DNA of 64,000 nt from Eledone cirrhosa (taxonomy: Eukaryota): positions 134,168,001 to 134,232,000 of the forward strand of contig OZ024742.1 of NCBI GenBank assembly GCA_964016885.1, read 5' to 3'. A program made the translations under genes and the position numbers. Below the pieces are notes generated by a model. The model did not search any database and was not told the origin of the DNA. It saw only the letters and a list, made by a program, of their open reading frames with translations. The number at the start of each line of letters is the position of its first letter. Within the stretch, counting starts at the first letter, position 1. Shown here one piece after another: positions 3,833-60,835 of the stretch.

Positions 3833-4330
3833 AGCGAGAAAAAAAAAATGTTTTCTCGCTCACATCTCACCCATGTCGGATGGTCTGAATCTATCGTCCA
3901 TGAATTCACCAAGCTTAAGCTTACAGATTTCATGTACTTGTCTCTTCATATCTTTCCGTTGCAATACGATCGTTGTTTGTTTACATGTCTCGCTCATTTC
4001 ACCCTATTTTACTTGTCCCAATAAGTTTATTTAGTTATTGCTCGCACCAACTAGAGGTATATGATTTTTAAAGCGAGGAAATACCAATGAAAGTTGGAAG
4101 ATCACTGATGAAGGACTAATTTTATTCATATGTAACCCATGTGCAACCAGGCAGCTCTCCATTTTTCTCATATATATATATATATGTATATATTAGAAAG
4201 TGAGGTTTTTTTTACAAAATGAAAAATAACCGAGGTGTCCTACACGAGTGAAAGTATAAAGAAAAAGAGATGAAATCGAAAATGTAACTGGAGTCTTATT
4301 TTTTTTAAAAATATATATCTTTATTTGGTT

Positions 4331-4368
4331 CCTTTACCGGTTTCGCAGTTCTTCTGCTTTTCAAAAGG
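4331..4368 (-). ncRNA. Minimal type I hammerhead ribozyme with U3-A8 variant core
   Basis: Minus strand: cctt-TTGAAAA-gcag-aagaa-ctgc-GAAA-ccg-GTA-aagg; all stems pair; stem III is the palindrome ACCGGT. Confidence 0.8.
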
Positions 4369-5213
4369 TGAGTTGAGATGGAGGGTCTGTGGTTTTTCTC
4401 ACATCTGGTTGGTCTCTGAATGTTACTTGTTTTATATGGAAAAAGTGGCTCGAAATGCCAGGTTTTTCGAGAAGTAATTTGATTGGTTTGTCAATAATTA
4501 TAATAAATTTCGCGCCAGTTCGCGTTACAATAGTTCTTCAAATAAGAGGGGGGAGGGCTTGTTACAGGTTGTTTTTTCATATATGAGTGTTTGAATTTCT
4601 TTTTACTTGAAAAAAGGAGGCTCACGAAGGCTTTTTTTTGGTTGGTTATAAATGAAATTATGGCTGTCACGTGAACAAATTTTCATTAAATTTTTGTGCC
4701 CTTATTTGGAAATCCATTCTCTAGCCTTTTTATAGAATTTTTTGATAAAAAGATAATGGTCAAGAGAAAGGGATGTGAGAATTGTTCTGGTTCAGTGAAT
4801 ATGGTTAGTTCGCTGGGGTGTCAGAATTCAGATTTTCTATTGAATAAAGATAGTAAAGATATGTGTGTTTATTTGTGTGCTTGTGTGTGTATGTGCGTGT
4901 GTGTGTGTGTTTGAATTTCTTTACTTTAGAGAAAGGTGGCTCAAGAAGGATTTTTTTTAATAAACGTGATTTGATTGGTTATAAATGAAATTTGGCTCTC
5001 ACGTGAACAAGTTTTCATTACATTTTTGCGCCCTTATTTTGAAAACTATTCTGTAGTCTTTATAGCGAATGTTATGACAATGGAAAGATAGTGGTCAAGA
5101 GAAAAGGGATTGTTCTGGTTCAGTTAATATGGTTAGTTCGCTGGCGTGTCAGAGTTCAGATTTTCTATTGAAGTGAAGATATGTATGTTTATTTGTGTGC
5201 TTGTGTGTGTGTA

Positions 5214-5246
<33 letters not shown>

Positions 5247-5659
5247 GTATTGGAAGATGATTCTATTAGTAGAAATGGGGGAGGGAGTTGTGTGTGTGTG
5301 TATATATATGTGTGTAGGAAAGTGGTTCTATTAGTAGAAATGGGGAGGGAGTTGTGGGTGTGGGGGTTGTTATGTGTGTGTATGGGTGTTATGTGTGTGG
5401 GAGTATAGTTAGCATGTTAAGATGAAGAGAATATATATATATATATATTGTATGTGTGTGTATGTGTGTGTGTAGGAAAGTGATTCCTTTAGTAGGAATA
5501 TTTTTTAATGAACATATTTTCCTTACTTATTCGTGTTTGCAGTTGTATTGTCAGTGCAAACGTATGTTAAGGTTTATTTAGTTCGGGTTTTTATTTTCTA
5601 AAGTAGAAGGTGTTATGTGTGTGTGTGTATGTCATATTATGGTGTTGACATAATGTATA

Positions 5660-6951
5660 TTAAACCTTATTTAATGTTGGTCTATATTTTTGAATAAACA
5701 TATTTTCCTTATTTATTCGCATTTGTTCTGTTGTATTGTTAGCGCAAAGGTAAAATGGGAAGACTTGGAATTTGGGTGTCTTATTACTTGCGCAAATGTT
5801 TAGATGTGCACTTAGTGGTATCTGTCTTGTGGTTGGATCTCGTAATTGTTGGCGATGAACTGTCATTCTGTTTCCGAGTGTGAGTTTAGTTTGTCCTATA
5901 TAATCTTCATTGCATCCTTTACATTTAATGGCATAAAGTAGATTTTTTGATGGGCAAGTGAAGTGATTTTTTACAGTAAAATTTTGTCCTGATTTAAATG
6001 TATACGTGTTGCCTTCAATGAGGTGAGTGCAGGTTCCACAATTAGAGCGACCACATTTTTTGATACTTGGTTGTGGGTTTGTGGTAGGTAATTTGGCATT
6101 GGTGAGTAATGTTTTCAGTGATTTTGGTTGTCTTTTGCTTTTGATTATTTTGTGTGTTTCAAGGGCTTTTTTCATTCTTGGGTTTTGTGAATAGTGTTGT
6201 AAGCTTCCGCATTTTTTGGGTTGTGTGTTGAGATATATGATAGAATATTGGACGTACCTTGAATTTGTTTCTGTTTCCGTAATTCATCAATGCCTATTGC
6301 TTTAGCCATTTCTATTTCATTATTTATTAGTAATAGTGGGTACTCTCTCTCGAGTAGAATTTCCTTTAATTCTTGAAGTCTTTTATTTCGCGTTTCATAA
6401 TTGGAGACAATTGTGCAAATTCTTCTTGCTAGGTTAAAAGGAATGTTCGTCTTCGTGTGCTTTGGATGGTTGGAGGTGAATAGCAGATATTGTTTGGAAT
6501 CTGTTGGTTTGTAGTGTATGTCAGTTTCGATATTTGTGTCTTTTTTTAAGATTAAGATGTCCAGAAATGGGAGTTGATCTTGGCTGTATTCCATTGTGAA
6601 TTGGATGTGGTTATTGATGCCGTTTATTAAGTTTTTGAAATCCTTCCGTTGGCCTAGTGTGTGGGACCAAAGAATGAGGCAATCATCCAAGTAGCGTTTC
6701 CTATTCCCTGATAAATATTTGTGGAAGTTCAATCCGTATTTTGATTTGGAATGTTCATATATCTGGACTTCTAAGTATGCCATGACTAAGTTGGCATAAG
6801 TTGGAGCGGCTTTTGTACCCATCGCAGTCCCCGATATTTGCTTGTAAGTATTGCCATCGAAATCAAAAAAGTTGTTTTGTAAGATACATTTTAATCCCTC
6901 GGTGATGTAGCTTTTTTCTATTCTGTCAGGTATCTCATTGGGATATTTCTC
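5660..6951 (-). pseudogene. PLE RT (C-terminal part), linker and GIY-YIG endonuclease, frameshifted near 6175
   Basis: [64 protein letters not shown]. Confidence 0.92.
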
Positions 6952-7252: not shown

Positions 7253-7425
7253 CGAAGGAAATGTGGTAAGGAACCAGGTGGACCATAACGCACCAAAGTA
7301 CTCAATACTTGGGGTAGTAGAGTGGGTAATAGGAACCAGTAAGACCCCGACAGCTGAGCTCAAGCCGTTTCGACGGCTAATTCTGGACTCAGCTTGAGCT
7401 CAGCTGTCGGGGTCTTACTGGTTCC

Positions 7426-7426
<1 letters not shown>
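7251..7426. mobile_element. Minimal fold-back insertion of the Naiad-A terminus in (TA)n
   Basis: 7251-7390 matches 42103-42241; 7393-7426 is the reverse complement of about 7329-7366. Confidence 0.85.
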
Positions 7427-7460
<34 letters not shown>

Positions 7461-8094: not shown

Positions 8095-11000
8095 AACGAA
8101 GGTTTTGTGGTAAGGAACCAGAGGTACCATAACGCACCAGAGTACTCAATACTTAGTGTAGTAGAGTGGGTAATAGGAAAAAGTATGACTCCGACAGCAG
8201 AGCTCAAGCCGTTTGGACGCCTATTTCTGAACTAATTATGAATTGTTAGTCTGGTACATAAACAGCCGAAAGTTTCTAGGGGTACTTCCTTATAGAGGAA
8301 GATAGTAGTTGTCAAGAGGATTGGTCAGCATCTGTTGTAAACACAAATAAGTCTATCATGGCACTGGGCGGGAGTTTGGGGTGGCTGAACTTGCCTGTAG
8401 AACAATGGGGGAGTGGGTGGAGCCGGTCAAGCGTTGAAAGTGAAATCTATACGGCACATTCTCAGGATTGTGTATGAAAGTAGGCCAGAGGAGGTATGCG
8501 AAAAAAGGTTTCTGGAGAAAATAGAGGAGGAACGTTGTAGAATGGGTAAATCAATTGATATTAGGAAACAATAAAAACATAATAAAAGAATAAGAGAAAG
8601 ATATATAAAAATATAAAACTGGATAGTGAGAATTGATAAAAAAACAGAAACTATAGAGTCTAAATTAGCTGCTATATTTAGTTGGTGTGGCTTTTTAGGC
8701 CCATCCTATAGAATGAGTTGAGAATAGAAGATACTAAATAAGAATTATTGAAATTGTAGAATTGGATAGTAAAAGGTAATACAAAATCTATGGGGCCTCA
8801 CACAGCTGCTATCATTAGTTAGTATAGCGTATTCGGCCAATGCTAACTTTAAGTTAATGGGGTGGGGGTACTGAGGCTACAGAGGCCCGATGGGCTACCT
8901 CGGTGTAGGCGAAAGGGGAAGGAATATTATTCTCCACGCCAGGAAGACAGTCCTACTTTTCGACAACTCCAAGTGGATAAAGAGAGCTCCCCTCTCCCCA
9001 TCGACGTCAGTATGGGCGCGGCCGATTCGGCCGAGGTCACCGATCTTATAGGATTATTCCTACTATTTAAACTCACCGAAATGTTTCCTGCATTCGGCGG
9101 TAGATTGTACCGAGACGATGGGCTCCTTACCCTCAAAGAGTACAACTCCAGTAGTACAGACAGGGTCCGTAAACAACTAATCAACTTCTTCCAGGACTGG
9201 GTATTTAAGATTACACTACAAACGTCACTAAACCGAGTCAATTTCCTGGACGTTACCGTCAACCTCGAAAATAATCTGTGCTACCTATACAGGACACCAA
9301 ACGACAAACTGCACTACATCCACCGCCGCTCTAACCATCCTAGAAACATCACCAATAACTTGGTTAAAAACATCTTCCTCCACATATCTCGTGTGTGCGC
9401 TAATGAGCAGATATTCGACGAACATTTGCCTCAGTACAACCAGGCCCTCAAGCGGAGTGGCTTCCGGGAGGAAATATCATTTTATCCAGCTTCCCTTAGC
9501 GGAACAAGCAGGCGACGCCGCCACTCACGCCACGTAATGTGGTTCAATCCTCCTCACAATGCCGAGGTGGCAACAACTATCGGGAAAATCTTCTTTAGGC
9601 TCCTCGAAAATCACTTTCTACTACAACACCGCTACCACAACATAATCAACAAAAACACTATGAAGCTCTCCTACAGCACCACACCTAACTTCACAGAAAA
9701 CATCGTCTCCTAAAACAACAATAAACTCAACCCCTATGGAAGAAACAAACTAGACATTAGCGGAGAGCCGACTAGGGGGTGGAACTGCTCTGATGGATCT
9801 ACGTGCCTCTTCAACAACAGATGCCGAGAACGTAACGTGAACTACAAGTGCAACGTGAGGACGGACACCTCCAAAAAGCTTATATAGGATTAACCGCTTG
9901 TGATTTTAAGACAAGGCTCTACGAACACCGACATATGTTCCGTAACCCGGTCAGGCGACATGCCACTACTCTTTCGGGCCACATCTGGGACCTCCAAGAT
10001 AATAACATAACATACAATCTTACTTGGAGCATACTGTCCAGAGTTAACTCTTACACGGGAAGACGCCGTCAATGTAACTTATGCTCACAGGAAACATTAC
10101 AAATACTGTTTACGAAGGATAAACTCCTAAACAAAAAAGACGAAGTGGTAACACATATGCAAACACATATTTCGTAAGATTTACTTCGCCCTCAAACCCC
10201 CTTACGATCCGGGTGAGTAGACAAGGGCTGAAACACCCCACTGTCGAAGAAGCTAGGGGAAATCCCAGCTTACATAGGTAGATGTACCTCTTTTCTGTTC
10301 TCCTCCTATCACCTCCTTCCACCACCTATCTCCTTCCACCACCGATCTCCTTCCACCATCCGATCTGCTTCCCCGTTCTCTTTTCCTCTTTCGCGTACCC
10401 TGAGGCAGCCCATCGGGCCTCTGTAGCCTCAGTACCCCCACCCAGTAACGTAAAGATTGCATTGGCCGAATACGCTATACTATCTAATCATAGCAGCTGT
10501 GTTACCCCAGAGATTTTGCATTACGTTTTACTACCCAATTCAACAATTTCATTCATTCTTATTTAGTATATCCTATTCTCAACTCATTCTATAGCATTGG
10601 CCTAAAAAGCCACACCAACTAAATATAGCAGTTGTTTTAGACTATAGTTTTTGTTTTTTTCACTTCTCACTATCCAATTTTATATTTTTATATATCTTTC
10701 TCTTATTTTTTTATCATTTTTTTTATTGTCTCCTAATCTCAGTTGATTTACCCATTCTACAACTTCCCTGCTCTTATTTCTCCAGAAACCATTTTTCGCC
10801 TACCACCTCTGGCCTACTTTCATACACATTCCTTATAATTTGCTGTATAGATTTCACTTTCAACACTTGACCGGCTCCGCCCGCTCCCTCGTTGTTCTAC
10901 ATGCAAGTTTAGCCACCCCCTTCTCCCACCCACTACCACGATAGACTTATTTGTGTTTACAACAAATTTTGACCAATACTCTTGACAACTCCAATCTTCC

Positions 11001-11119
11001 CATATAAGGAAGTACCTTCTGAACAGTTCGGCTATTTATCTACCAGACTAAACATTCTAATTTAGTCCAGAAATAGCCGTCGAAACGGCTTGACCTCTGC
11101 CCTCGCGGTCATACTTTTT

Positions 11120-11121
<2 letters not shown>
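8095..11121 (+). mobile_element. Naiad-type PLE (family Nai-A) copy 1: inverted terminal arm 8095-8925, 5'-truncated ORF, 3' region
   Basis: About 8172-8925 is the reverse complement of about 10370-11121; flanked by (TA)n. Confidence 0.9.
8925..10219 (+). pseudogene. Naiad-type RT and GIY-YIG, with stop codon and frameshift
   Basis: DVSMGAADSAEVTDLIGL, LYRDDGL, VNFLDVT, SNHP, WFNPP, KLSYS, AYIGLT, CNLC. Confidence 0.9.
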
Positions 11122-11195
<74 letters not shown>

Positions 11196-14078: not shown

Positions 14079-14151
14079 TCACCTGAATAGATCAGTGATA
14101 ATCGATCATGGCTACACGATCGATCTATCTCTTATTGAAACAGTGTCGTGA
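14079..14151 (+). ncRNA. Type I hammerhead ribozyme with long stem II, degraded
   Basis: tcac-CTGAATA-...-GAAA-cagt-GTC-gtga; the two arms have different lesions and together restore CTGANGA and GAAA. Confidence 0.6.
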
Positions 14152-38388: not shown

Positions 38389-40727
38389 TAGTATGGGCGC
38401 GACGGATTCGGCTGAGGTCACAGATCTTATAGGATGATTCCTACTATTTAAACTCACCGAAATGTTTCCTGCATTCGGCGGTGGATTGTATCTTGATGAT
38501 GGGCTCCTTACCCTCAAATGGATAGAACCCCAGTAGTACAGACCGGGTCCGGAAACAATTAATAAGCATCTTTCGCGACTGGGGATTTTAAATAACCCTA
38601 CAACCGTCCCTAACCTGAGTAAACATCCTGGACGTTACCCTTAACCTCGATAATGATCTGTAGTACCCTTACAGGAAACCAAACGATAACCTGCATTACA
38701 TCCACCGCCGGTCGAACCATCCTAGAAACACCAACAATAACCTGGTTTAAAATATCTCCCTCCGCATATCACGTTTGTCCGCTAATGAACAGATAATCGA
38801 CGAACATGCGCCTTATTACAACCAGGCCCTCAAGCGGAGTGGCTTCCGGGAGGAAATATCCTATTGTCCAGTTTCTATTAGCGGAATCAGCAGGCGACAC
38901 CGCCGCTTACGCAACGTACCGTGGTTCAATCCTCCCCACAATGCCGAGGTGACAACACCTATCGGGAATATCTTCTTTAGGCTCATCGAAAAACACTTCC
39001 CACTACAACACCGCTACCACAACATAATCAACAAAAACACCATCAAACTCTCCTTAAGCACCACACCTATCTTCGCACAAAACATCGTCTCCTCTAACAA
39101 CAAACAAATCAATCCATATGGAAGAAATAACCTAGAGAGCAGTCGACGTGTAACTGTCCTGAAAGATCCCTTTGCCCCTCAACAACAGATGTCGAGATCG
39201 TAATGTAATCTACCAGTGCAACGTGAAGACGGACACCTCCAACAAATCTTATATAGGATTAAACGCTTGGGACTTCAAGACCCGGCTCTACCTACACAGA
39301 CGTACTTTCTGAAACCCGGACCGGCGTCATGCCACTACTCTTTCGGGCCACATCTATGAGCTCAAAGAATATAATATAACCTACAATCTCACTTGGAGCT
39401 TACTCTCCAGAACTAACTCTTACACAGGAGGACGATGTCCGTGTAACCTATGCTCGGAGGAAACACACATATGTTGTTTTCCAAGGACCAACTCCTAAAC
39501 AAGTAAGACGAACTGGTAACTGCATGCAAACACAGATTGCGTAGGACTTACCTCGCCCTCAAACCCCATAATGACCGGGGAGGGGGGTAGACAAGGGCTG
39601 AAACACCCCACTTGCCGAATTTGTAAGGGGTAAGCTTACAAAGGTAGACATAACTTTTTTATCTTTTCATCTATATTTATTTCTCCCCCCATCTCTTCGT
39701 AGTCCTTCTACCCCATATCTCCTTGTCTTTGTTTCACCTTTACGCCCACCCCGATGCAGCCCATCGGTCCTCTGTAGCCTCAGTACCCCCCCCCCCTAAT
39801 TTTAAGATATAATTGGCCGATTACGCTTTTTATAGCAGATGTGTTAGACCCCAGTAAATTGTTTTCTTTCTGGATGCTGCTCCATTTCTGCGATTTCTAA
39901 ATTTCTTAGTGGTATTTTTGTATTAGTATCCTTGTATTAGTATTTATGTATTAGTATTCTGAATTAATATTTCGTATTAGTATGTTTGTAGTAGTATTTT
40001 AGTATGTTTGTCCTCAACTTATTAACCTGTCATTGTAAGATAGCATTGGCTGATTACTACTAACTATAGCAGTGGTGTTTGACCCCCTGCAAAGCCGGCT
40101 TTATAAAATTCTTTCACTACAATTTCGTATTTAGTAATTTTCTCCACCTATTAAACTTTTCTATAGCTTAGCAATACCAATGATAGATTTAGTGATTGTG
40201 GGGATGGAGCAGTAACCAGAAATTATTTTAATAATATATTTATCTCCACATTTTTATAATTATTTTTTTGTTTACTCCCTTTCGATTCACCTATTCTGTC
40301 AAATACCCCCCCCCCTCTTCTCCACAACACATTTTTCGAACTTCTATACACTATCCTTAGAATCTGTTGTATAGATTTCACTTTCAATGCTTGAATGGGT
40401 TTCCCCCCTTCCTCTTTGCTCTACCGGCAAGTTCAGCTACCCCTATCCCCCACTAAATGCCATGATAGTATCATCTGTCTTGACAACAAATGTTTGACCA
40501 ATCCTTTTGACAATTACTATCTTCCCATATAAGGAATTAACCCCTGAGAAGTTCGGATATTTATTTACCAGGTTAAACATTCTTATTTAGTCCAGAATTA
40601 GCCATCAAAACGGCTTGAGCTCTGCCGTTGGGGTCATACTTGTTCCTATTACCCACTCTACTACCCTAAGTATTGAGTACTTTGGTGCGTTATGGTCCAT
40701 CTGTTTCCTTACCACATTTCCTTCGTT
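38389..40727 (+). mobile_element. Nai-A copy 2, 5'-truncated, disrupted ORF at about 38389-39590, 3' region ending with the tail
   Basis: MGATDSAEVTDL, LDDGL, WFNPP, SYIGL, CNLC; terminus matches 42103. Confidence 0.9.
40539..40634 (+). ncRNA. Degraded Nai-A hammerhead ribozyme
   Basis: acccc-TGAGAA-gttcggata...tagccatc-AAAA-cggcttgagctctgcc-GTT-ggggt. Confidence 0.55.
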
Positions 40728-41430: not shown

Positions 41431-41652
41431 AGTCATCTCTCACTCTTAGTACGGCTGTTGCTTAAATATAAGTATGTATACGTACAGTAGTATGTATATA
41501 TAGACATACATGCACACATATATATACATATACGTATGGATTTACCGAACATTTGTTATAATGCTCGGTGTGTTTGTAAACAGACATCCCCAATTAAACC
41601 GTACAGTTTTTAGCAACAATCTTTGCCTTTTTGCTCAACACTGTCAAAGGAA

Positions 41653-41693
41653 CGATTTAGTAGTTTCAAGCTTATTAGCTATCGTTAGCACCG
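41653..41693 (-). ncRNA. Minimal hammerhead ribozyme, degraded mirror copy
   Basis: cggtg-CTAACGA-tagctaataagctt-GAAA-ctacta-aatcg. Confidence 0.55.
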
Positions 41694-41780
41694 TATACCT
41701 TCCTGCCAGATGATTGAACGTCTGAAAGTATAAGGAAAGTATATACTTTTAAACGTTCAATCATCTGGCAGGAATGTATA

Positions 41781-41821
41781 CAGAGCTGACGATAGCTAAT
41801 AAGCTTGAAACTAGTACATCG
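41781..41821 (+). ncRNA. Minimal type I hammerhead ribozyme
   Basis: cagag-CTGACGA-t-agct-aata-agct-t-GAAA-cta-GTA-catcg; stem III palindrome ACTAGT; combining the arms gives stem I cggtg/catcg. Confidence 0.7.
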
Positions 41822-42023
41822 TTCCTTTGTCAGTGTTGAACAAAAGGGCAAAGATGTTTGTTAAACACTGTACGGCTTAATTCGGTATGTTTGTTTACAA
41901 ACACACCGAGCATTATAATAATTGTTCGGTAAATCCATACGTACATGTATACATGTGTGCATGCCTGTATATATATACATACTACTGTACGTCTGTAGAC
42001 ATATATGTATGTACGTATACATA

Positions 42024-42099
<76 letters not shown>

Positions 42100-42195
42100 T
42101 ATAACGAAGGAAATGCGGTAAGGAACCAGGTGGACCATAACGCACCAAAGTACTCAATACTTGGGGTAGTAGAGTGGGTAATAGGAACCAGTAAG

Positions 42196-42289
42196 ACCCC
42201 GACAGCTGAGCTCAAGCCGTTTCGACGGCTAGTTCTGGACTAAATGAAAATTTATCCTGGTATTTAAATAGCCGATCTTCTCAAGGGGT
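42196..42289 (-). ncRNA. Type I hammerhead ribozyme with U3-A8 core (Nai-A, sense arm)
   Basis: acccc-TTGAGAA-gatcggcta...tagccgtc-GAAA-cggcttgagctcagct-GTC-ggggt. Confidence 0.8.
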
Positions 42290-43405
42290 AATTCCATAAA
42301 TGGTCAAAGTGATTGTCAAAAATCAGTAGTAATTCTGTGATTGCAAATTAGTAGGGGAGATGGTGGCTAAACCTGCCAGTAGGCGAAAGAGGGGAGGGGG
42401 TGGAGTAGACCCAATCAAGCGTTGGTAGTGCCAGCTACAGCTGGGCATGAGGTCAAAGAAGATACTGGGGAGGGGGAGGGGGAGGAAGTCGGAACGGTAG
42501 GTAGAACAATGGGGGCAAAAATATATATGAAAGAAAAAATACTGAGAGTGAAGAAAAGCGAATAAGTGTAAAGAAAAAAAAAAAAGTAAAGCAAGTTCTA
42601 CGACCTAGGTCTCTAGCTATTGTTAGGCTAGAATAAATAAATAAAGAAAGAAAGAAAGAAGTAAAGAAAGAAATAAAGAAATAACGAAATAAGTAAAAGA
42701 ACTAGGTGGGACGGATAAGGCAAGGACCCTTTTAAGAGGTATAAGTACGTAAATGATACGGTGACGGGTCAACAAAAGGGGCCAAAATACTAAAGAGACT
42801 ACCACGAAATAAATAATAAAGGTTTCTATCCCGGGCACAATGCCAGCAACCACCCAGTGCAGCAAAGTGAACTAGTACGAGATAATAATTCTGAGTCCCG
42901 AAAAAAATATATACTAATGCTAACTCTAAAAGATCTAAAACAAGCTACATGAAAGTTCGTACGAAGTAAAGGTAGAATACGGAAAAATAAATTCAGAATC
43001 CACCCCGCCCAAAAGAAAAGCGAAGAAAGAAATACTTAAACGAAAAAATAAGGCATAAGTGCCACTAAGAAATATAGAAGGCACGGAGAATAGTGGGAGC
43101 GGTCGGAAAAAGAGGGCAAGTATCCGGGGTCTAAACCAACTGCTATAAAAGGCGGAGTCCGCCAAATCTATCATAGACTAGGGGAGGGGGTGGGGGTACT
43201 AAGGCTACAAGGGCCAAAGGGCAGCCTCGGGTGGGCGAGAAAAGACGCCGACAAAGGAGAAGAGCTGGGGTAGAAGGACTAAGGAGAGATGGGGGGATGG
43301 AAATAAAGGGAGCGATAAAAGAATAAAAAGAAGATCTTACGTCTCCCTTGGCAAGCAGGGGTTACCCATTGCAAAATCGGCAAGTGGGGGTGTTATAGCC
43401 CTAGT

Positions 43406-44545
43406 CTACTCCCCCGGGTCATTATGGGGTTTGAGGGCGAGGTAAGTCCTACGCAATCTATGTTTACATGCAGTAACCAGTTCATCGTTCTTGTTTAGGA
43501 GTTGGTCCGTCGAAAACAACATTTGTAAAGTTTCCTCCGAGCATAAATTGCACGGACGGCGTCTTCCCATGTAAGAATTGGCTCTGGACAGTAATCTCCA
43601 AGTGAGATCATAGGTGATGTTGTTGTCCTTGAGGTCCCATATGTGGCCCGAAAGTGTAGTGGCGTGACGCCGGGCCGGGTTTCGGAAGGTATGTCTATGT
43701 TGGTATAGCCGGGTCTTGAAGTCACATGCGGTAAGTCCTATATAGGCTTTGTTGGAGGTATCCGTCCTCACGTTGTACTGGTAGATCACATTACGGTCTC
43801 TGCATCTATTGTCGAGTGGGCAAATGGATCTATCCGGACAGTTACACCTCCTGGTCGGTTCTCCACTGCTATTTAGGTTATTTCTGCCATCGGGGTTGAG
43901 TTTTTTGTTGTTAGAGGAGACGATGTTTTGTGCGAAGTTTGGTGTAATGCTGTAAGAGAGTTTGATGGTATTTTTGTTAATTATGTTGTGGTAGCGGTGT
44001 TGTAATGGGAAGTGTTTTTCAATGAGCCTAAAGAATAGTTTCCCGATGGGAGTTGTCACCTCTGCGTTGTGGGGAGGATTGAACCATGTTACATTGCGTG
44101 AGCGGCGGTGTCTCCTGCTGGTTCCGCTAATGGGAGCTGGACAGTAGGATATTTCCTCCCGGAAACCACTCCGCTTGAGGGCCTGGTTGTAATAAGGCGC
44201 ATGTTCATCGAATATCCGCTCATTAGCTGACAAACGGGATATGCGGAGGGAGATGTTTTTGACCAGGTTGTTTGTGATGTTCCTAGGATGGTTTGATCGG
44301 CGGTGGATGTAGTGCAGATTGTCATTAGGTTTCCTGTATGGGTAGTACAGGTCGTTTTCGAGGTCGAGGGTCACGTCCAGGAAGTTTACTCGGGTCAGGG
44401 ACGTTTGTAGGGTTATTTTAAATCCCCAGTCGCGGAAGAATCTGATTAATTGTTTCCGGACCCGATCTGTACTACTGGGGTTGTACCCTTTAAGGGTAAG
44501 CAGCCCATCATCACGGTACAATCCAGCACCGAATGCAGGAAACAT
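43406..44545 (-). CDS. Naiad-type PLE polyprotein, 5'-truncated: RT C-terminal half, CCHH-type linker, GIY-YIG endonuclease
   Basis: 379-aa uninterrupted ORF: GLYRDDGL, VNFLDVTLDL, PYRKPN, SNHP, WFNPP, CNC..CPLD..C, VIYQ..AYIGLT..FKTRLYQH, CNLC. Confidence 0.9.
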   Translation of the reverse strand: MFPAFGAGLYRDDGLLTLKGYNPSSTDRVRKQLIRFFRDWGFKITLQTSLTRVNFLDVTLDLENDLYYPYRKPNDNLHYIHRRSNHPRNITNNLVKNISLRISRLSANERIFDEHAPYYNQALKRSGFREEISYCPAPISGTSRRHRRSRNVTWFNPPHNAEVTTPIGKLFFRLIEKHFPLQHRYHNIINKNTIKLSYSITPNFAQNIVSSNNKKLNPDGRNNLNSSGEPTRRCNCPDRSICPLDNRCRDRNVIYQYNVRTDTSNKAYIGLTACDFKTRLYQHRHTFRNPARRHATTLSGHIWDLKDNNITYDLTWRLLSRANSYMGRRRPCNLCSEETLQMLFSTDQLLNKNDELVTACKHRLRRTYLALKPHNDPGE

Positions 44546-44888
44546 ATCAGTGAGTTTGGCTATTAGGACCCTAGGTCGTAGAACTTGCTTTACTTTTTTT
44601 TTTCTTTACACTTATTCGCTTTTCTTCACTCTCAGTATTTTTTCTTTCATATATATTTTTACCCCCCATTGTTCTACCTACTGTTCCGACTTCCTCCCCC
44701 TCCCCCTCCCCAGTATCTTCTTTGACCTCATGCCCAGCTGTAGCTGGCACTACCAACGCTTGATTGGGTCTACTCCACCCCCTCCCCTCTTTCTCCTACT
44801 GGCAGGTTTAGCCACCATCTCCCCTACTAATTTGCAATCACAGAATTACTACTGATTTTTGACAATCACTTTGACCATTTATGGAATT

Positions 44889-44982
44889 ACCCCTTGAGAA
44901 GATCGGCTATTTAAATACCAGGATAAATTTTCATTTAGTCCAGAATTAGCCGTCGAAACGGCTTGAGCTCAGCTGTCGGGGT
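44889..44982 (+). ncRNA. Type I hammerhead ribozyme with U3-A8 core (Nai-A, inverted arm)
   Basis: Same motif as 42196-42289; predicted cleavage after C44977. Confidence 0.8.
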
Positions 44983-45021
44983 CTTACTGGTTCCTATATA
45001 TATATATATATATATATATAT

Positions 45022-48000
45022 AACAGCAATAACAACAACAGCCAGAAAACCAGGAGCAAGCACTACTGAATTCAAGCATATTAGCTGAATTACTGAATGA
45101 CAGTATCACCCAGCCACTCACTCAGCCATCAATATCGCCATCACCATCATCATCGCCACTATCTTCTGCTACATCAACATCTTCTGCCACATCAACTGCT
45201 AGTAATGGACCACTGTTCTCTCACCCACCACAGTTGTCATTATCATCATCACACCTAATGGTTTCTTCCCCCACATCACCACCACAGGCATGCCATAGTC
45301 AAAAGAACTTTAACAAAAAAAGATCTATGGAGCTGTATGCCCCCCCCCCCCACTACACATAGTAGAAATACCCAAAATATGCCGCTACTCAGTACGTCAG
45401 AGGCTATACACGCGTACCAACTGTATATTTACCCATTTACCGGGTACTAGGCGCACTAACATTACCAGTCAACACCAAAGCACGCTGCCCACACGTATAG
45501 GTCGCAGTCCCAAAATCTGCCAACATTCCGTACGTGAGAGGCTATTTTTGCTGACTGACTGTCCCTTCACTCATCTTCCTGGGGCACAACGCACGAAGAG
45601 AAAAGGGGCTTCATGCCAACCCACAAACCACAATAAAGCCACTCCCTGTTGCGGTAATGATGCTCCTCTCTCCTCGCAAAGACATGATTATAACAACAAA
45701 AACAACAAAAGTAATGCTGCTCCAGTCTTTTCACAAAGACACGATCACAACAACAACAAATACAACAACAACAAAAATAACGCTGATCCAGTCTTTTCAC
45801 AAATACACAATTACAAATACAACAACAACAACAAAATATGGAACTGCAAACCCTATCCAATGTTGTAACCATAAATCCAATCAAAAACTGCTCCCTGAAC
45901 AAAAAAAAAAATATTTCTTTTTTAGCCATGAACCTGGCAAAAGAGGTAGAGAAAAACATTTTAGCCATCACCCAACACCATCCTTGCTGTCACTAACACA
46001 CAATCACAAAACAAGCCCCCTGTAACAGTCAAAACCAGCCACCACTCTGGCCTCCACATTCTTACTCAATGCACAGAAATGGGAGATCCAATTCATTGAG
46101 GATTGGGTTGGTAACCATCCATTTCACATCCCCTTCTTCATTCTTACTGAGACCCAGATTGACAACTCCCACTTGGAGGCCGAAGTAAGAGTGAGAAATT
46201 TCACAACCATTCCTGTGGATCGTGTTTGCAGAAGGAAGGGCGGAACTGCTATGTTCGTGCATGATTCCTTTACGGTAGATGGCAACACAACATTCTCTAA
46301 TGGATACTGTGAATCAGTCACTGTGCATAATAAAGCCAAAGACCTGACATTAGTTGGGCTTTTTAGGCCACCACAAGCACCCATGATCTGCTTCAAAGAA
46401 TGCCTCAACAGTATTAAATGCTTTATTAAAAAGTGCCATTCTAGCAACATACTTCTGATGGGACACTTTAATCTACCTTGTGTCGATTGGTCTACATGTA
46501 GTTTGAAACCAGGCTCCACAGCCTCAACCACGGACAAAGAGGCTGTCGAGTCAATTCTTGACTTCATGAATGAGTGTTTCTTGTCCCAAATAGTCCTTGC
46601 ACCAACGAAGCATCAGAAGAACATTCTGGATCTAGTATTTAGTAACCGCACTAACACTATACATAATATTACAGTGGAAAAAACCCTTCTCTCAGACCAT
46701 GACATGGTTCTTTGTAACCTGAGATTCCACCAGCGGAAAGCTAATCACAGAGTCCTCTCTCCAGCCCACTAATTTGATAACATGGATCTCTACAATGCCA
46801 ACAGGGATGTAATTATGAACGAACTATCACATGTCGACTGGTCTTTTACACACGCACACCACATCAAAACATCTTGGCAGGTCTTTGTAGACACTGTCAC
46901 AAATATATCTACAAAACACACACCCCCCAAAACCTGTGAACAAAACCAAGTGCAGTATCCCCCAAATCAGAAAAGTAAGATCAAACAAAAGAAATTAACA
47001 CTCTAAAATACTGCCAACAGCAACACACCCATTCAATGGCTATCACCCTGCTTGAGTCAAAAAATTATAACCTACAGTAATGCATGATGACCATCATCAA
47101 TAACCAGAGAATAACTGAAGAGAGGTGGGCCATTGAGAAAATCAAGGTCAACCCCAAAGTGTTCTTTTCATTTGCTAAAAAAGCACAAGGTCACCGTCTC
47201 CACTGTTGGCTCCCTAGTTGATGAAAATGGCACACTCCAGGACAATGCCAAAACGATGGTCGAGATACTGCAAAAACAATACTGCTCTGTTTTCAGCATC
47301 CTGATATGGCCGATCTGGGCCGTATCAGTGATATTAACCCCCAACACACTATATCAGACATAACGTTTGGCGACCCTGATGTCGTAGCGGCAATAAACAA
47401 AATTAAACACAATTCAGCAGTAGGCCCTGACAAGTTCCCTGCTTGTGTCCTGAAGGTGTGTCGACACCAACTTGCAACTCCTCTTGCTAATCTGTGGAGG
47501 AACTAGCTGGACACTGGCTATATTCCTGAAAACTTTCTGTCCCAGTCCGTTGTCCCAGTCTTCAAAAAGGGAAATAAGTCCCTTGCAGTGAACTACCGTC
47601 CGATCTCACTCACCTCTCATATTATCAAGGTATTTGATTCGGTGGTGAGATCACGAATAACCCACTTTCTTGAAAGCAACGGCCTGCTAAACTCCAACCA
47701 ACATGGGTTCTGTAATGGAAGGGACTGCCTAACGCAGCTCCTGCATCACTTTGGCGATGTTTTGAGAGCCTTGGGAGAGGGCTCCGACACTGATGTCATC
47801 TACCTTGATTTCAGCAAGGCCTTCGACAGAGTTCATCATAAGATTCTACTGAATAAACTATCCAATGTTGGTGTATCTGGAAGGTTACTACAGTGGATCA
47901 AATATTTCCTGACAGGCAGAACCCAGCATGTTGGAGTCGAAGGAGTAAAATCAAGCCCTGCCAAAGCCAGCAGTGGCGTCACACAAGGCAATGTGTTGGG

Positions 48001-49040
48001 CCCACTTCTTTTCATCATCTACATTAATGACATAACTGACATCATCAAGCACAGCGATATCAGAATCTTCACAGATGATTCCAAGGTACAAAGGGTCATC
48101 AATGAGGTGGGTGACCGGACTTGCCTTCAGTCAGACCTCCTGGCTGTTATCTAATGGGCAGAAATGAGTAATATACTGCTGAATGAGGATAAATTTGAAC
48201 TAATCCAATTTGGAAGAAAGGATGCCTGAAACTACCATACTCTCTTCCTTCAGGTGAAATTCTAGTGGCTTCCAATAACATCAGAGACCTGGCGGTAATT
48301 GTGGGCAACAATATAAGCTGGGCCACTCATATAAACAGCGAAATTGATATGGCCCGCAGAATGTGTTCCTGGATTCTCAGAACTTTCCAGTCGAGAAATA
48401 TCCACACTGTTATTCTTCTCTTCTCCACTTTTGCCCGACCCCACCTTGAATACTGCTGTCCACTGTGGTCACCCCACACGAAACAAAGTATCATGAAAGT
48501 TGAAGCACCCCAAATGTCAATTACAAAAAAAGATAGATGGCATGACAGGCCTTGACTATTGGAGTCGATTAGAAAAGCTCAAACTTTATTCTCTTCAACG
48601 TCGCCGTGAGCGCTACATTATCTGTATGATGTAGAAAATATTCCATCAGCTCTTCCCAAATGATGCTATCATCAACTTTAGAGTACATCCAAGGCTTGGG
48701 CTCCGTGCTATCCGCCCACGACAAAAATCTCGTTTGCATCACATAAAAACAATACGGCACAATTATTTCACCTCAATTGGCCCTGCACTCTTTAACATTA
48801 CACCAAAACACATCAAAGCCGAGACAGATCCCATCAAGTTCGAGAAGTCTTTGGATAAATTCCTACAAGAAATGCCGGATAAGCCTCCCACTCTTGGATA
48901 TGCCGCTGTAAACAATAACTCTCTGCTCGAGTGGGCCATGGTGCCCAAACACTAATTTGTAAGATTTCGGCTGTTGGTGCTATCAAGTTAGACATGGCCT
49001 GGGCCAATACTGGCCGAAACCTATCAAAGTTGTTAAAGTT
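45022..49040 (+). mobile_element. CR1-group LINE, decayed: ORF1 remnant and APE-RT ORF2 (about 46050-48955)
   Basis: GGTAMFV, MGHFNLP, NILDLVF, SDH, NYRPISLTS, YLDFSKAFDRV, SGVTQGNVLGPLLF, FTDDSK, RPHLEYCCPLWSPH. Confidence 0.92.
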
Positions 49041-50556: not shown

Positions 50557-53500
50557 CCCTCTTCCTACTATATCAAGCGTTAACCTAATATATACGTTCC
50601 ATATCCAATTGTGTTGTTATTTCTGTTTACATTTTACATACACATATATATATATCAACGCTTACATGGACCTCTCAAAATTCGTTGGCTTTCCTGATTG
50701 GATCTCGAAACTGGATACCAACCCGGAGTACACCTGAACTTCCACCAGGAAATCTTTCGTATCTTTGAAATTTTCTTTGCTTCTTGCATTTAAATATTCC
50801 ACGACTCTCTACCACTTTTCCTCTACTACATTTTCTCAGCCGTTTATTTTTCACTCCCAACCTAGTACCTTCAATATGCCCAATCTCAAATCCTTTCTCC
50901 GCCAGCTCCATTCTACTCTCAAGCGCTTCCTCCAACCTCTCCCCCCTAACATATATGCATCTAAACCTCCCTGCATCTCTCCAACCTAATCTTTACCAAA
51001 ACACGATACAACAGTCACATCAGATTTTTAAGTCGCTGTCTCCAACACCATCTCATTCGCACCGGTGTCCGCCTCAAGTGTCACGCCAGCTCTTACTCTG
51101 CTGCCACCACTGAGCCCATCCTGACCCACTCCTCTAGCCAGCTCATGCGGGCGACCATTCGATCAACTCCCGCACAAATCCGTTCTCTCGACCGGGATCT
51201 CCCCAAGGCCTACATCCATCTCTCCTCCACTTACCACCCTTTCCTCGCCCAATCCCTTATACAATTCATCCTTTACCTCAATCGCCTCCTTCTCAATTTC
51301 CTCACATCCGCAAAAAAACATAAACTCGACTCTGTCCGCTCCTTGCCTGCCGTCACCACCCATACTCATATCACTTCCAACCCTAACCCCTCTATCCCGT
51401 CACCTACCACTGTATCTGCACACGCTTTGCACAACCACCTTGACACCTCGCCTCCGCCACTTTCACTCCCTCACGCACCTGCACTGTAGTTACCTTACCC
51501 CAGGACCTACCACTCTCCGAAGCTGAACGCTCCCTCCTCGCCCGTGCATTTCGTTTTATACCAACCACATCTACCTGCAACGAGTTCCGCACTTGTGCCA
51601 AGATTGAAGGGTTCTTCCGTTGTTTAAAGCTGAAAGCTTTTTTTCACGACACGCCATCATCAACACAGACGGATGACTTCACTCGTCTCAGTTGCCGGCA
51701 ATCACATTGGACGCCGAGCTCTGGCCAGTTCAGCACCCACGACTCTTTTGTCAATACTTGCCGGAGTACCGTGAATCGGTTCCGTTTCCACAAGCATTCT
51801 CGTCGCTCTAACATCACGCGAACTTAGCTCTCCGCTCTTCGCAGCCTTCGGTGTTGTGATGACATTGTCACAAACCCGCTGACAAAGGTGGCGCTGTGGT
51901 GGTTTGGAGTGCTGACCTCTATAGGGCTGAGGCTCTCCGCCAGCTTCACAATAACCTTTTTTTACCACCCTTTATCATCCAACCCCACTCCTTGGTACCA
52001 ACAACTCCTGTCCTCCACCAACCACGAGCCCATCTCCACCTCTCACCTAACCCCCACACCCACCAACATTATTGTATGCACACCTCGCACACCACCCATC
52101 TACTTCCTCCCCAAAATACACAAAATAATCCGGGCCGTCCTATCGTTTATGCGTGCAACTGCCCCACCGAGATAATTTCTGAATATTTAGACACCATCCT
52201 CGCTCGTTGGTCGCCTATCTCCCCTCCAACATCCACGATACACATCATGCCCTTAGACTTTTCTATTCTTTCTCCTTCCCGCCTGGTCCCTCCCGCCTAC
52301 TCTTTATCTTGGACATGACTTTTCTCTATACCGTCAACCCTAATGATGACGGCTACCGCGCACTCCAGCATTTTTTAGATGTACGCCCTACCCCTTACCC
52401 CAGCACTACCACTCTTCTCCTTCTGGCTGAGCTTCTTCTCACCCTTAATGGATTTTCTTTTTCGCGTGAATTTTACTATCAGGTCTCTCGGGTAACGATG
52501 GGAATCAGAATGGGTCCAATCAATGCCAACTCGCTTGTTGGCTACGTCGAAGCCCAGGTCTTCTCCCAGTACGCTGGACCAACTGCCTAGCTATACGTTC
52601 GTTATATCGACGACTGTATCGGCGCCACCTCTCTATCACGAGAACAGCTCGACTGTTTTCTTTCTTTTGTCAAATCTTTCCATCCTGCTCTCAATTTCAC
52701 TGCCTCGGTCTTCGATTCTGCTGCCGCTTTTCTAGATATCTCTCCATCTATTAATCATTATTACCCCACCGTCTCTACTTCCATCTACACTGAAACCAAC
52801 AAAATCCCAATCTTATCTCGACTTCACCTCCTGCCATCCAACCCACACCAAACACTCCATAGCATATTCCCAGTTCCTCCGTCTTCGTCAACTCTGTAGC
52901 CAGGACGACGATTTCGAAACCCATTCCGTTCGCATGGCTTCCTGCTTCATCCAGCGTGGATATCCCCCCCACATCCATCCAAGCTGATCTCACCCGCGCC
53001 CGTGAAACATACCCCACCACAGCCTCCTCACCTCAATCCCGCCCTTCCAATAACTGTGTTCCTTTCCCTCTTCCCTACCACCCCAGCACTCTACCACTGC
53101 GGCGACATATCCTCCGTTCCTTCCATATCCTCTCTTCTGACCCCGTCACTTCTCGCTTTTTTCCAAAGCCACCCATTATGGCTTTTAAGCGCGCCCGATA
53201 CCTCGACGACCTCCTGGTTCGCATTTCTTCTTCGTCCACTCCCACCACTCCACCTGGGTATCCTTATACATCATCGATCACAGGCCTCGCACACTGGGAC
53301 TGAACAAAGTCTGATTCATCGTCTTGGGTCCTATTCCCCTCTTAGACTAAACTCACCTCCCCAATTCTCTAATACCCCGTCCATTATCACACCCCTAGAT
53401 TCCTATCGCTTTTTCTTTGCTCATAGCTTCGTACCGACATGTACACACACTCTTTTACTCACATATACACACATATCTCTACTTAGCTTCGTACGGACCT

Positions 53501-53568
53501 ATAATAACACACACACACACACATACTCACGTGCACATGCACACACACACACACACACACGCACACAC

Positions 53569-53599
<31 letters not shown>

Positions 53600-53830
53600 T
53601 GATGCTTACGCACGTGCTCAAGTATAGCTCTTTTTACAAAACAGATTTTTTTCCATTTCAGGTAGACGCGCGCCTTCATCGAATTTCTAAAGAACAAATC
53701 ATACACAAAACGCCAGCACCAATATTTTTGCAAGAGAAGTCAACATGAATGGACCCATTATTTCTATCTAAAGACATTTTTTCCAATTCCATCTAGCCCG
53801 TCCCGTTAATCTATTTTATTTCTCATTCTT

Positions 53831-56291: not shown

Positions 56292-56335
<44 letters not shown>

Positions 56336-56337
<2 letters not shown>

Positions 56338-56495
56338 AGGAAAGTGTTTGAACCCGACGGCAGAGCTCCAGCCGTTTCGAAAAGCCTTGCGCTCTGCCGT
56401 CGGTGTCAAACATTTTCCTATTACCCACTCTACTACCCTAAATATAGAGTACTCTGGCGTTATGGTCTATCTGGTTCCTTACAACACCTCCTTCG

Positions 56496-56498
<3 letters not shown>
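56336..56498. mobile_element. Minimal fold-back of a Nai-A-like terminus
   Basis: Palindrome centred at gtttcgaaaa (about 56378) followed by the about 80-nt tail; in (TA)n. Confidence 0.8.
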
Positions 56499-56555
<57 letters not shown>

Positions 56556-59202: not shown

Positions 59203-59219
59203 ATATATATATATATATA

Positions 59220-60835
59220 GAAGATACAGAAATAGAAACTACTTATGGTTTAATCCAATGTTTAACTCCTCTATTAAAACTAAGCTTCTTCTCAATTTCT
59301 TTAAATTAGTTGACAAACACTTACCTAAAATACATAAATATCATAACATCATTAATAGAAAAACTATCAAACTATCATACTCCACTGCTAACAACATAGA
59401 ATCGCACATTCTCAAAATTAACTACATAAGCATTCATAATCAAAGTAGCCCCCATACAAGTTCCATATCACCAAATACACAACACACACATATTACATCA
59501 TCGCAACAAAATACACGTTAAAGAAGACCACCACAATACACCAACCAACCTAATTCGCAGCCCATACAGAACAACCTACAAAATCATGTAGTAGAACCGG
59601 CGCATATGAAGGCATTTCTATGCAATTGTCACTTACCCGACAATTGCCCTCTACTAAACAAATGCCTTGAGAAAAAAACGTAGTATACTTGTGTCCAATC
59701 AACTCAGGTAGCTTGGTATGGTATTATATTGGTTCCACAGCTGATGTTTTCAAAAAACGGTGGTACGTGCACAGACATTCTATGATTAATAAGAACCAAT
59801 CAAATACAACAACTCTTGCCAATAATATATGGCAACTCAAAAATGCAGGCACTAAATACAAGATCAGCGGGAAAATACTGTCATCTGCTAAAGCCTATCA
59901 AACTGGTATGTCCCATTGTAGACTCTGTAATATGGAGCTCTTCCAATTTTTCTATTTTAGTAAAACCCTTCTTAACAGTAGTATTGAGCGAACTATATTT
60001 TGCCGGCATAAATCAGCAACGAAGTTCCTGAACTTTATTTCAACTTAACTCCATTTTCTTCTCCTTTTTCCTTTTTATATGTTTATACTTTTACCACTTA
60101 TTACGATATCAAATGATCACAAACATCATAATTACGTAGGAATAACCTAAAAAATTTGTATTAACAAAATTATTTTTATTTTTATTTTTATTTGTATTTA
60201 CATCATTTATTATCTTATATATATACATCTTTCACCATTTGTCTTTGTATATCTCCACTTCAACATATTTTGTCTGGATCATTTTATCTTATAATATAAT
60301 ATATCTCAAACTAGCTATTTTACATAGTAATGTATATTCGTCCATATGTTTATTTTATTTTCTCTCTTCATCATATCCTCATATTCATGATTAATTTATT
60401 TCCCCCTCTACTCCCTCATCCCCCTTAATCTTCCTCTATTTCTTTCTCATCTTCCTTATTTATCCTTCCTCTTTGCCTATGCTATATCCCCCCTTCTCTC
60501 CTTCTCTACAAATATCTTTATTATTATTAATATAAAATTTATTTTAATGATTGATTTCGTAACATTGCCGGTTATACATTTAACTATATCTTCGTTCCTT
60601 CTTTCATTCTTTCTCTCCCATTTCCATCTGTCTCCCTTCCTTTATTTTTTTATCATTAACAATATTATTGATGTAGTAATGTGAATTTTTAAGTTTACGG
60701 TTACGCATATATTTTATATTTCTTAATGATTTCTGATGAAATGATTAAACTTAAATTGAGTTAGACTGTCTCCAATATTTAGCAATTTATAGACAATTCT
60801 ATCAGGGAAAAATGTCAACCATGTTATTCTTAACT
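59220..60835 (+). mobile_element. Second Naiad-type PLE family (Nai-B), 5'-truncated, GIY-YIG half plus 3' region
   Basis: WFNP, KTIKLSYS, CNC..CPL..C, YYIGST..FKKRW..H, CRLC, CRHK. Confidence 0.85.
60726..60822 (+). ncRNA. Probable hammerhead ribozyme at the Nai-B 3' end
   Basis: atgattt-CTGATGA-aatgat...atcagg-GAAA-aat-GTC-aaccat; stems imperfect. Confidence 0.5.

Follow-up and report, generated by a model that had tools for sequence, protein, structure and literature searches.

The role of hammerhead ribozymes in Penelope-like elements (PLEs) is an open question. Cervera and de la Pena 2014 describe U3-A8 cores in Cercyon PLEs of Schistosoma mansoni, with about 1,300 matches (PMC4209133). 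In the accessible part of that paper, Fig. S3 has 56 rows, of which 53 are C3-G8, two are U3-A8, one (PLE-linked, from Saccoglossus) is U3·G8 and none is C3·A8. The initial annotation of the locus presented here took U3-A8 to be undescribed as a PLE family trait, but it had already been published for Cercyon of Schistosoma. A natural U3-A8 covariation was also reported to be active by Perreault et al. 2011 (PMC3088659). In Craig et al. 2021, each of the 26 Hydra entries in File S2 is C3-G8 with a short stem II, and Naiads are characterized, in the part of the source available, by an N-terminal endonuclease, a CxC domain, the motif DKA and a lack of canonical hammerheads (PMC8557442). In PAc, a Poseidon element of the green anole, two internal reverse transcriptase (RT) start sites make the "tail", ribozyme mutants leave in vitro insertion unchanged and cleavage requires protein (Frangieh et al. 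2024, PMC11167929). A pairwise scan of a type III hammerhead, which is another scaffold than that of the Eledone element, found variants at positions 3 and 8 to have low activity except for the G-C swap (PMC9901934). Because only this swap rescues the pair in the type III scaffold, slow cleavage is to be expected of U3-A8, U3·G8 and C3·A8 alike. The U3-A8 core variant is known already. What looks new is a succession of 3/8 states within one Hydra lineage, as the literature covered, which was limited, describes neither C3·A8 subfamilies nor changes of state within a PLE lineage.

The window analysed here is a 64,000-nucleotide stretch of the Eledone cirrhosa genome (features in Table 1). The element that carries the ribozyme is assigned to the Hydra clade on the basis of its motifs; the protein trees were built with database relatives that are 38-43% identical. 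The ORF encodes an RT core (YRDDG), a thumb, a CxCx5C linker and, at its C-terminal end, a GIY-YIG-type endonuclease. The linker, CNCPDRSIC, has the spacing that marks Hydra elements (compared by eye with the material of Craig et al.). The protein has the motifs SDKTGNLY (DKT) and RLRWRT (RWR where Hydra has an RWK-like motif). The endonuclease segment CNLCSEE...LLNK...CKH has CxxC and CxH around the conserved E and N and is without the CCHH set, and the endonuclease motif VIYQ...AYIGLT lies near the C-terminus of the 717-aa protein. Both (TA)n targets and a 3' hammerhead, two further Hydra-clade characters, are present. Since the window Hydra fragments have no Pfam match at E <= 0.1, the call of ORF architecture rests on these motifs. 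In two full-length natural copies (L059 and L061) there is a single ORF of 717 aa, counted from Met, with the RT first and the endonuclease C-terminal. The label "Naiad-type" given to the element in the initial annotation is wrong, since Naiads carry their endonuclease at the N-terminus and lack a canonical hammerhead; here GIY-YIG is C-terminal, the motif is DKT and not DKA, and a complete type I hammerhead is present.

Table 1. Positions of the PLE and ribozyme features in the window
Feature	Position	Strand	Detail
5'-truncated Hydra-clade ORF	43406..44566	-	residues 332-717 of the 717-aa protein, 98% identical
Long 3' untranslated region, ORF to ribozyme	42290..43405	-	
Type I hammerhead at the sense 3' end (pseudo-LTR) of the element	42196..42289	-	same hammerhead as in the inverted arm; predicted cleavage after C42201
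PLE "tail" past the shorter 3' end	42100..42180	-	about 80 nt
Inverted 5'-truncated copy of the element 3' end	44564..44997	+	98% identical to 42181-42615
Type I hammerhead, inverted arm	44889..44982	+	predicted cleavage after C44977
Older same-lineage copy	38450..40689	+	C3·A8 core CTGAGAA at 40544
Older same-lineage copy	8133..11137	.	a pair of decayed ribozyme arms in inverted orientation (about 8270 and 11019)
Neptune-type PLE, minimal U3-A8 hammerhead (UUGAAAA)	4330..4369	-	core 4364-4358

The intact 717-aa protein occurs in tandem arrays elsewhere in the genome (period 3,531 bp). A query with the C-terminal 164 aa gives 63,881 first-look candidates, a total to which other relatives contribute, and all 150 matches that were scored are 98-100% identical, which indicates that this Hydra family is young and large. 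One public RNA run contains a single 140-nt piece, located away from the ribozyme (contigs only, which do not inform on cleavage or expression).

Both arms of the element have the layout acccc-TTGAGAA-54-nt stem II-GAAA-stem III-GUC-ggggt, as the initial annotation had stated. Stem I is ACCCC/GGGGU, and the core UUGAGAA is U3-A8 in both. In the plus-strand arm, the core is at 44894-44900, GAAA at 44955-44958, C17 at 44977 and the stem III palindrome (GAGCUC), TGAGCTCA, at 44964-44971; in the minus-strand arm, the core is at 42284-42278 and C17 at 42201. The inverted copy stops in (TA)n, 20 nt beyond the cleavage site. With 98% identity between them, the arms represent one insertion event and not two observations. 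Apart from the replacement of C3-G8 by U3-A8, the three stems of a type I hammerhead around CUGANGA/GAAA/NUH are all found.

The minimum-energy fold of 44886-44986 is a three-way junction, the energy of which is not unusual relative to shuffled sequences (z -0.55). With 10-nt flanks, the three stems are jointly formed in 70% of the ensemble for the right arm and 34% for the left arm. Stems II and III have near-identical 3' strands (window 44947-44963), so a perfect hairpin around CGAA can bury GAAA. This competing hairpin dominates the ensemble once the flanks are 100 nt. Its share is flank-dependent, at 23-97% in young copies and more than 80% in one C3·A8 copy, and one base that differs between the arms moves it from 24% to 63%. 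Such a hairpin could serve to switch the ribozyme off. In the 64-kb window, the bare YTGANRA word occurs about as often as expected by chance (198 occurrences versus 179 +/- 14), and an Rfam scan gave no hammerhead family at E <= 1, only low-complexity miRNA-like matches. Support for the hammerhead comes from conservation across subfamilies, not from the YTGANRA word. At this level, the motif in the two arms is confirmed as real, and self-cleavage is predicted.

This conservation was assessed in nine classes from 277 copies, a sample that is enriched by the search and in which the stems and GAAA are partly fixed by anchors. The commonest state is unchanged in all nine classes at U4, G5, A6, A9, G10.1, G12-A15.1 and the GUC triplet, and switches among them at positions 3, 7 and 8. 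In 15 hand-picked copies, 90.8% of cells are paired versus 26-47% in slid controls, and three pairs of stem II have changed on both sides (few independent events). The chance of invariance at the average rate is 0.16-0.30 for the four freely searched core sites and 0.01-0.05 for ten core sites, some of which are fixed by search anchors. Alone, the invariance of the four freely searched sites is weak evidence of selection.

A genome-wide exact search, with the flanks fixed, the seven core bases free and both arms of one insertion counted, gave 5,902 matches: 4,085 U3-A8 (69%), 1,440 C3·A8 (24%), 25 G8 and 352 otherwise changed. The 3-8 pair is a Watson-Crick U-A in the window copy and a mismatch in 1,440 of the family's 5,902 matches. 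In the first 100 matches listed, all four bases occur at position 7, while TGA is unchanged in 99 and A9 in all 100. G8 matches with a pyrimidine at position 3 have C3 in 8 of 24 cases, which is at background (24%, p = 0.34), so the 25 young-family G8 cores are scattered late mutations. The initial annotation held that a lack of 3/8 covariation in alignments would count against it, and within the family, given these C3·A8 and G8 counts, covariation as a fixed pair is indeed absent. Positions 3 and 8 stay pyrimidine and purine, respectively, and both arms of single insertions carry the same state.

The order of the states can be followed on a DNA tree of 58 endonuclease-coding stretches from which the ribozyme was left out. 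Within a clade supported at 100/99, 11 C3 rows branch off as a grade, and eight young U3 rows are nested among them, also at 100/99. Tip length increases up this ladder (rho 0.71) and outgroup proteins root outside the C3/U3 part of the tree; together, these results make the order U3-A8 to C3·A8 to U3-A8 well supported. A bridging subfamily with UUGAAGA (U3·G8) and linked loop and tail variants comprises nine insertions, plus three related ones. An older sister subfamily has UUGAGGA and CUGAGGA, with G8 in 17 of 50 rows, three of these C3. A ribozyme-region tree (233 columns, positions 3, 7 and 8 masked) places the G8 group first, followed by the U3-A8 sister, the U3·G8 bridge, U3-A8, and then C3·A8 with young U3-A8, although this short alignment does not cleanly separate the last two. 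When the oldest subfamilies are to be rooted, the outgroup proteins fall into a polytomy, polarised sites are divided 1:1 and no trend in tip length is seen within the sister family (rho -0.14). C3-G8 in these subfamilies may be either a relic or a reversion. As judged from these copies, the 3-8 pair has changed among four forms, U-A, C·A, U·G and C-G, across distinct subfamilies that were amplified. Four sister-family copies (L228, L231, L366 and L474) have G at core position 9 (TTGATAG) and are possibly a minor subfamily.

Other copies are present in the window. The older same-lineage arms read TAGAAAC (8270), CTGAACA (11019) and CTGAGAA (40545). The earlier claim that they never have G8 holds for all three, but none is an intact U3-A8 core and two of the three have C3. 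Relatives of the 8133..11137 subfamily have the cores TTGAAAA and TTGACAA. Tiny insertions at 7289-7441 (inside the Neptune ORF) and 56300-56500 consist solely of the Hydra element's final 100-150 nt together with an inverted piece. An older sister family is represented by 2,088 exact matches, and in 30 loci read almost all of these are mini hairpins of this kind. A second, older Hydra family, with about 35% protein identity and 52,764 first-look candidates, is present at 59219-60830 (+). It groups with the U3-A8 Hydra lineage on protein trees and has CUGAUGA or CUGAGGA (C3-G8) and a stem II of about 70 nt; a tendency to long stems II may run through the whole host genome. A different family is represented at 41480-41960 by a long fold-back repeat, which has close copies in several further genomic loci and a minimal hammerhead-like CUGACGA (C3-G8) at 41786 (+). 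A fourth hammerhead family with a 47-nt stem II is found at 14083-14147 (+), where the core is a decayed CTGAATA, and at L215:3264-3329, where it is the canonical CTGATGA. The regions 46026-48154 and 50965-53750 contain a decayed LINE with an APE endonuclease and the remnant of yet another, different PLE-like ORF.

The window also contains a Neptune-type PLE (4330-6950), which serves as a comparison element. Its endonuclease lies at 5660-6283 (Pfam GIY-YIG, E-value: 2.8e-6), and its protein has the series CGRSNCGTC...C...CKGC...H...H, that is, the CX4CxxC linker (CX2-5CxxC in Neptune), long spacer and C-terminal CCHH endonuclease expected of Neptune from the alignment rows of Craig et al. Its minimal UUGAAAA hammerhead has 13,692 exact genomic matches, and 97 of the first 100 listed are intact U3-A8. 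Two of these loci were fetched: L347 has a Neptune ORF with the hammerhead about 1 kb downstream on the same strand, and L348 has no Neptune ORF. The stems are unrelated to those of the Hydra ribozyme, in agreement with the initial annotation. Its proposal that two PLE clades share U3-A8 is correct in that the clades are distant and the scaffolds unrelated, but the second clade is Hydra, not Naiad.

Insertion ends bear on which RNA is copied. Of 145 distinct copies that carry the ribozyme, 73 stop about 20 nt past the cleavage site and a further 70 continue through the tail to about 100 nt; two fit neither end. Because 143 of 145 copies run past the site, the inserted DNA derives from uncut or re-joined RNA, which bears out the idea of a full-length RNA template with the addition that the RNA may have been re-joined. 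Cut and re-joined circular templates would give the same genomic ends as uncut RNA. No 5' junction was at the cleavage site in the 13 copies with a junction inside the stretch (from 21 ORF-complete copies, 20 of them mapped), a test biased by the choice of 9 of the 21 through a frame length that forces an upstream 5' end.

The presence of four 3-8 states in separate amplified subfamilies suggests that the ribozyme is likely slow or protein-helped and that cutting is likely not needed for each insertion. The explanation that we consider probable is accordingly a weak ribozyme, slow or protein-assisted, whose cutting is dispensable per insertion and whose 3-8 pair is under relaxed constraint. 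It is favoured over both convergent attenuation and a dead structural landmark. Under this explanation, the motif, which in tandem arrays precedes the next start codon by about 190 nt, would sometimes trim read-through transcripts or circularise them. Reverse transcription would begin about 20 or about 100 nt downstream of the motif, on uncut or re-joined RNA. Selection would preserve the fold and most catalytic bases and would tolerate any pyrimidine-purine combination at 3-8, with U3-A8 as the commonest resting state of the pair. That the lineage regains U3-A8 more than once is a hint that a Watson-Crick pair is still favoured. U3-A8 is best read as the commonest state and not as a proven convergent attenuator.

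In the form of the idea that does invoke convergence, selection pushed both clades to U3-A8, creating a slower ribozyme that spares full-length template RNA. Such tuning would fit the 97 U3-A8 cores in the first 100 listed of the 13,692 Neptune matches, the 69% share in Hydra (regained after a C3·A8 phase), two more U3-A8 cores among 48 ribozyme-bearing metagenomic Hydra loci and the reported activity of the natural covariation (PMC3088659). It is unlikely, however, as C3·A8 and U3·G8 subfamilies were likewise amplified, and C3-G8 is kept in the same genome by the second Hydra family and by an unassigned third repeat. In addition, C-to-U and G-to-A are ordinary transitions toward A+T, and one Hydra origin of U3-A8 is not rejected (AU p = 0.23). 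A catalytically dead ribozyme, the fold of which is retained as a binding or start-site landmark for the RT of the element, would account for the amplification of a mismatch state to 1,440 matches, for 3' ends at two fixed distances downstream of the motif and for the prevalence of the GAAA-burying hairpin in young copies (23-97%) and in one C3·A8 copy (>80%). Against this, U4, G5, A6, A9, G12-A14, A15.1 and GUC are kept in nine classes with position 7 free, which is the pattern of a catalytic core, and positions 3 and 8 never depart from pyrimidine/purine; we regard a dead ribozyme as quite improbable.

It might also be argued that C3·A8 and G8 are post-insertion mutations, C-run slippage or assembly errors and not states of active elements. 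Position 3 does come after a C run, and such an origin holds for the 25 scattered young-family G8 matches and for window copy 11019. C3·A8, however, makes up 24% of matches and occupies a supported grade when the tree leaves the ribozyme out, the bridge subfamily's G8 goes together with other diagnostic sites, and the state is common to both arms of single insertions. The C3·A8 counts, the endonuclease tree and the linked bridge diagnostics largely refute this origin, which is very improbable as a general account. A more tentative extension of the weak-ribozyme explanation, which we think possible but doubtful, is that the 3-8 pair walked through all four pyrimidine-purine states, every one of them amplified as a subfamily, with protein or wobble sustaining cleavage and so bridging the supposed fitness valleys, and is an evolvable rheostat of the transposition rate. 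C·A can form a protonated wobble that resembles U·G. If the rheostat exists, the wobble would be A+·C or U·G in a long-stemmed scaffold, the pair would set the shares of cut, circular and intact RNA and thereby the rate of transposition, and the copies would be a dated fossil record of a catalytic pair.

This lineage provides naturally occurring allelic variants of a single scaffold, and its intact 717-aa ORFs and its dated copies, which number in the thousands, let cleavage rate be compared with historical amplification. It offers a rare direct view of the intermediates in a compensatory base-pair change. Descriptor searches that demand C3-G8 overlook thousands of such sites (about 5,900 and 13,700 exact matches in the two families).

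Comparison with other Hydra elements was extended to 78 metagenomic loci, of which 69 have at least 150 nt after the endonuclease and 48 have a downstream hammerhead. These 48 hammerheads comprise 44 C3-G8 (many redundant), two U3-A8 and two doubtful; antisense strands gave three matches in all. Although the best trees set L059, L278 and L293 apart, one origin of U3-A8 within Hydra is not rejected by AU tests (p 0.23-0.55). On present sampling, U3-A8 recurs among Hydra elements. A weak candidate for a natural G3-C8 swap, with a score at threshold, lies downstream of a Hydra-type ORF (L274:2601-2630).

Of the systems described, Cercyon resembles the Eledone element in having a U3-A8 core fixed in a PLE family. 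Its hammerheads are minimal and of dimer type, whereas the Eledone Hydra motif can fold as a monomer, and the accessible part of the Cercyon paper has no succession of states inside one lineage (PMC4209133). Naiads share the (TA)n insertion, inverted arms and tail, but their N-terminal endonuclease, CxC domain, DKA and hammerhead absence are all untrue of the Eledone element. PAc likewise has two RT start sites downstream of the ribozyme and an uncut RNA template, but it belongs to the Poseidon clade and has a canonical C3-G8 minimal core that overlaps the start codon (PMC11167929). In the Eledone element, the tail measures about 80 nt, and about 190 nt separate the ribozyme from the start codon downstream of it. 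With the published Hydra clade, the element shares the C-terminal GIY-YIG endonuclease without the CCHH set, the CxCx5C linker, CxxC/CxH around E and N, an RWK-like motif and DKT, the inverted arm with its 5' truncation, (TA)n targets and a 3' type I hammerhead with a real stem III (PMC8557442). Relative to those elements, which are mostly under 3 kb, the Eledone lineage has a 3.5-kb unit, U3-A8, C3·A8 or U3·G8 cores, a 54-nt stem II and a 19-nt stem III region (PMC8557442).
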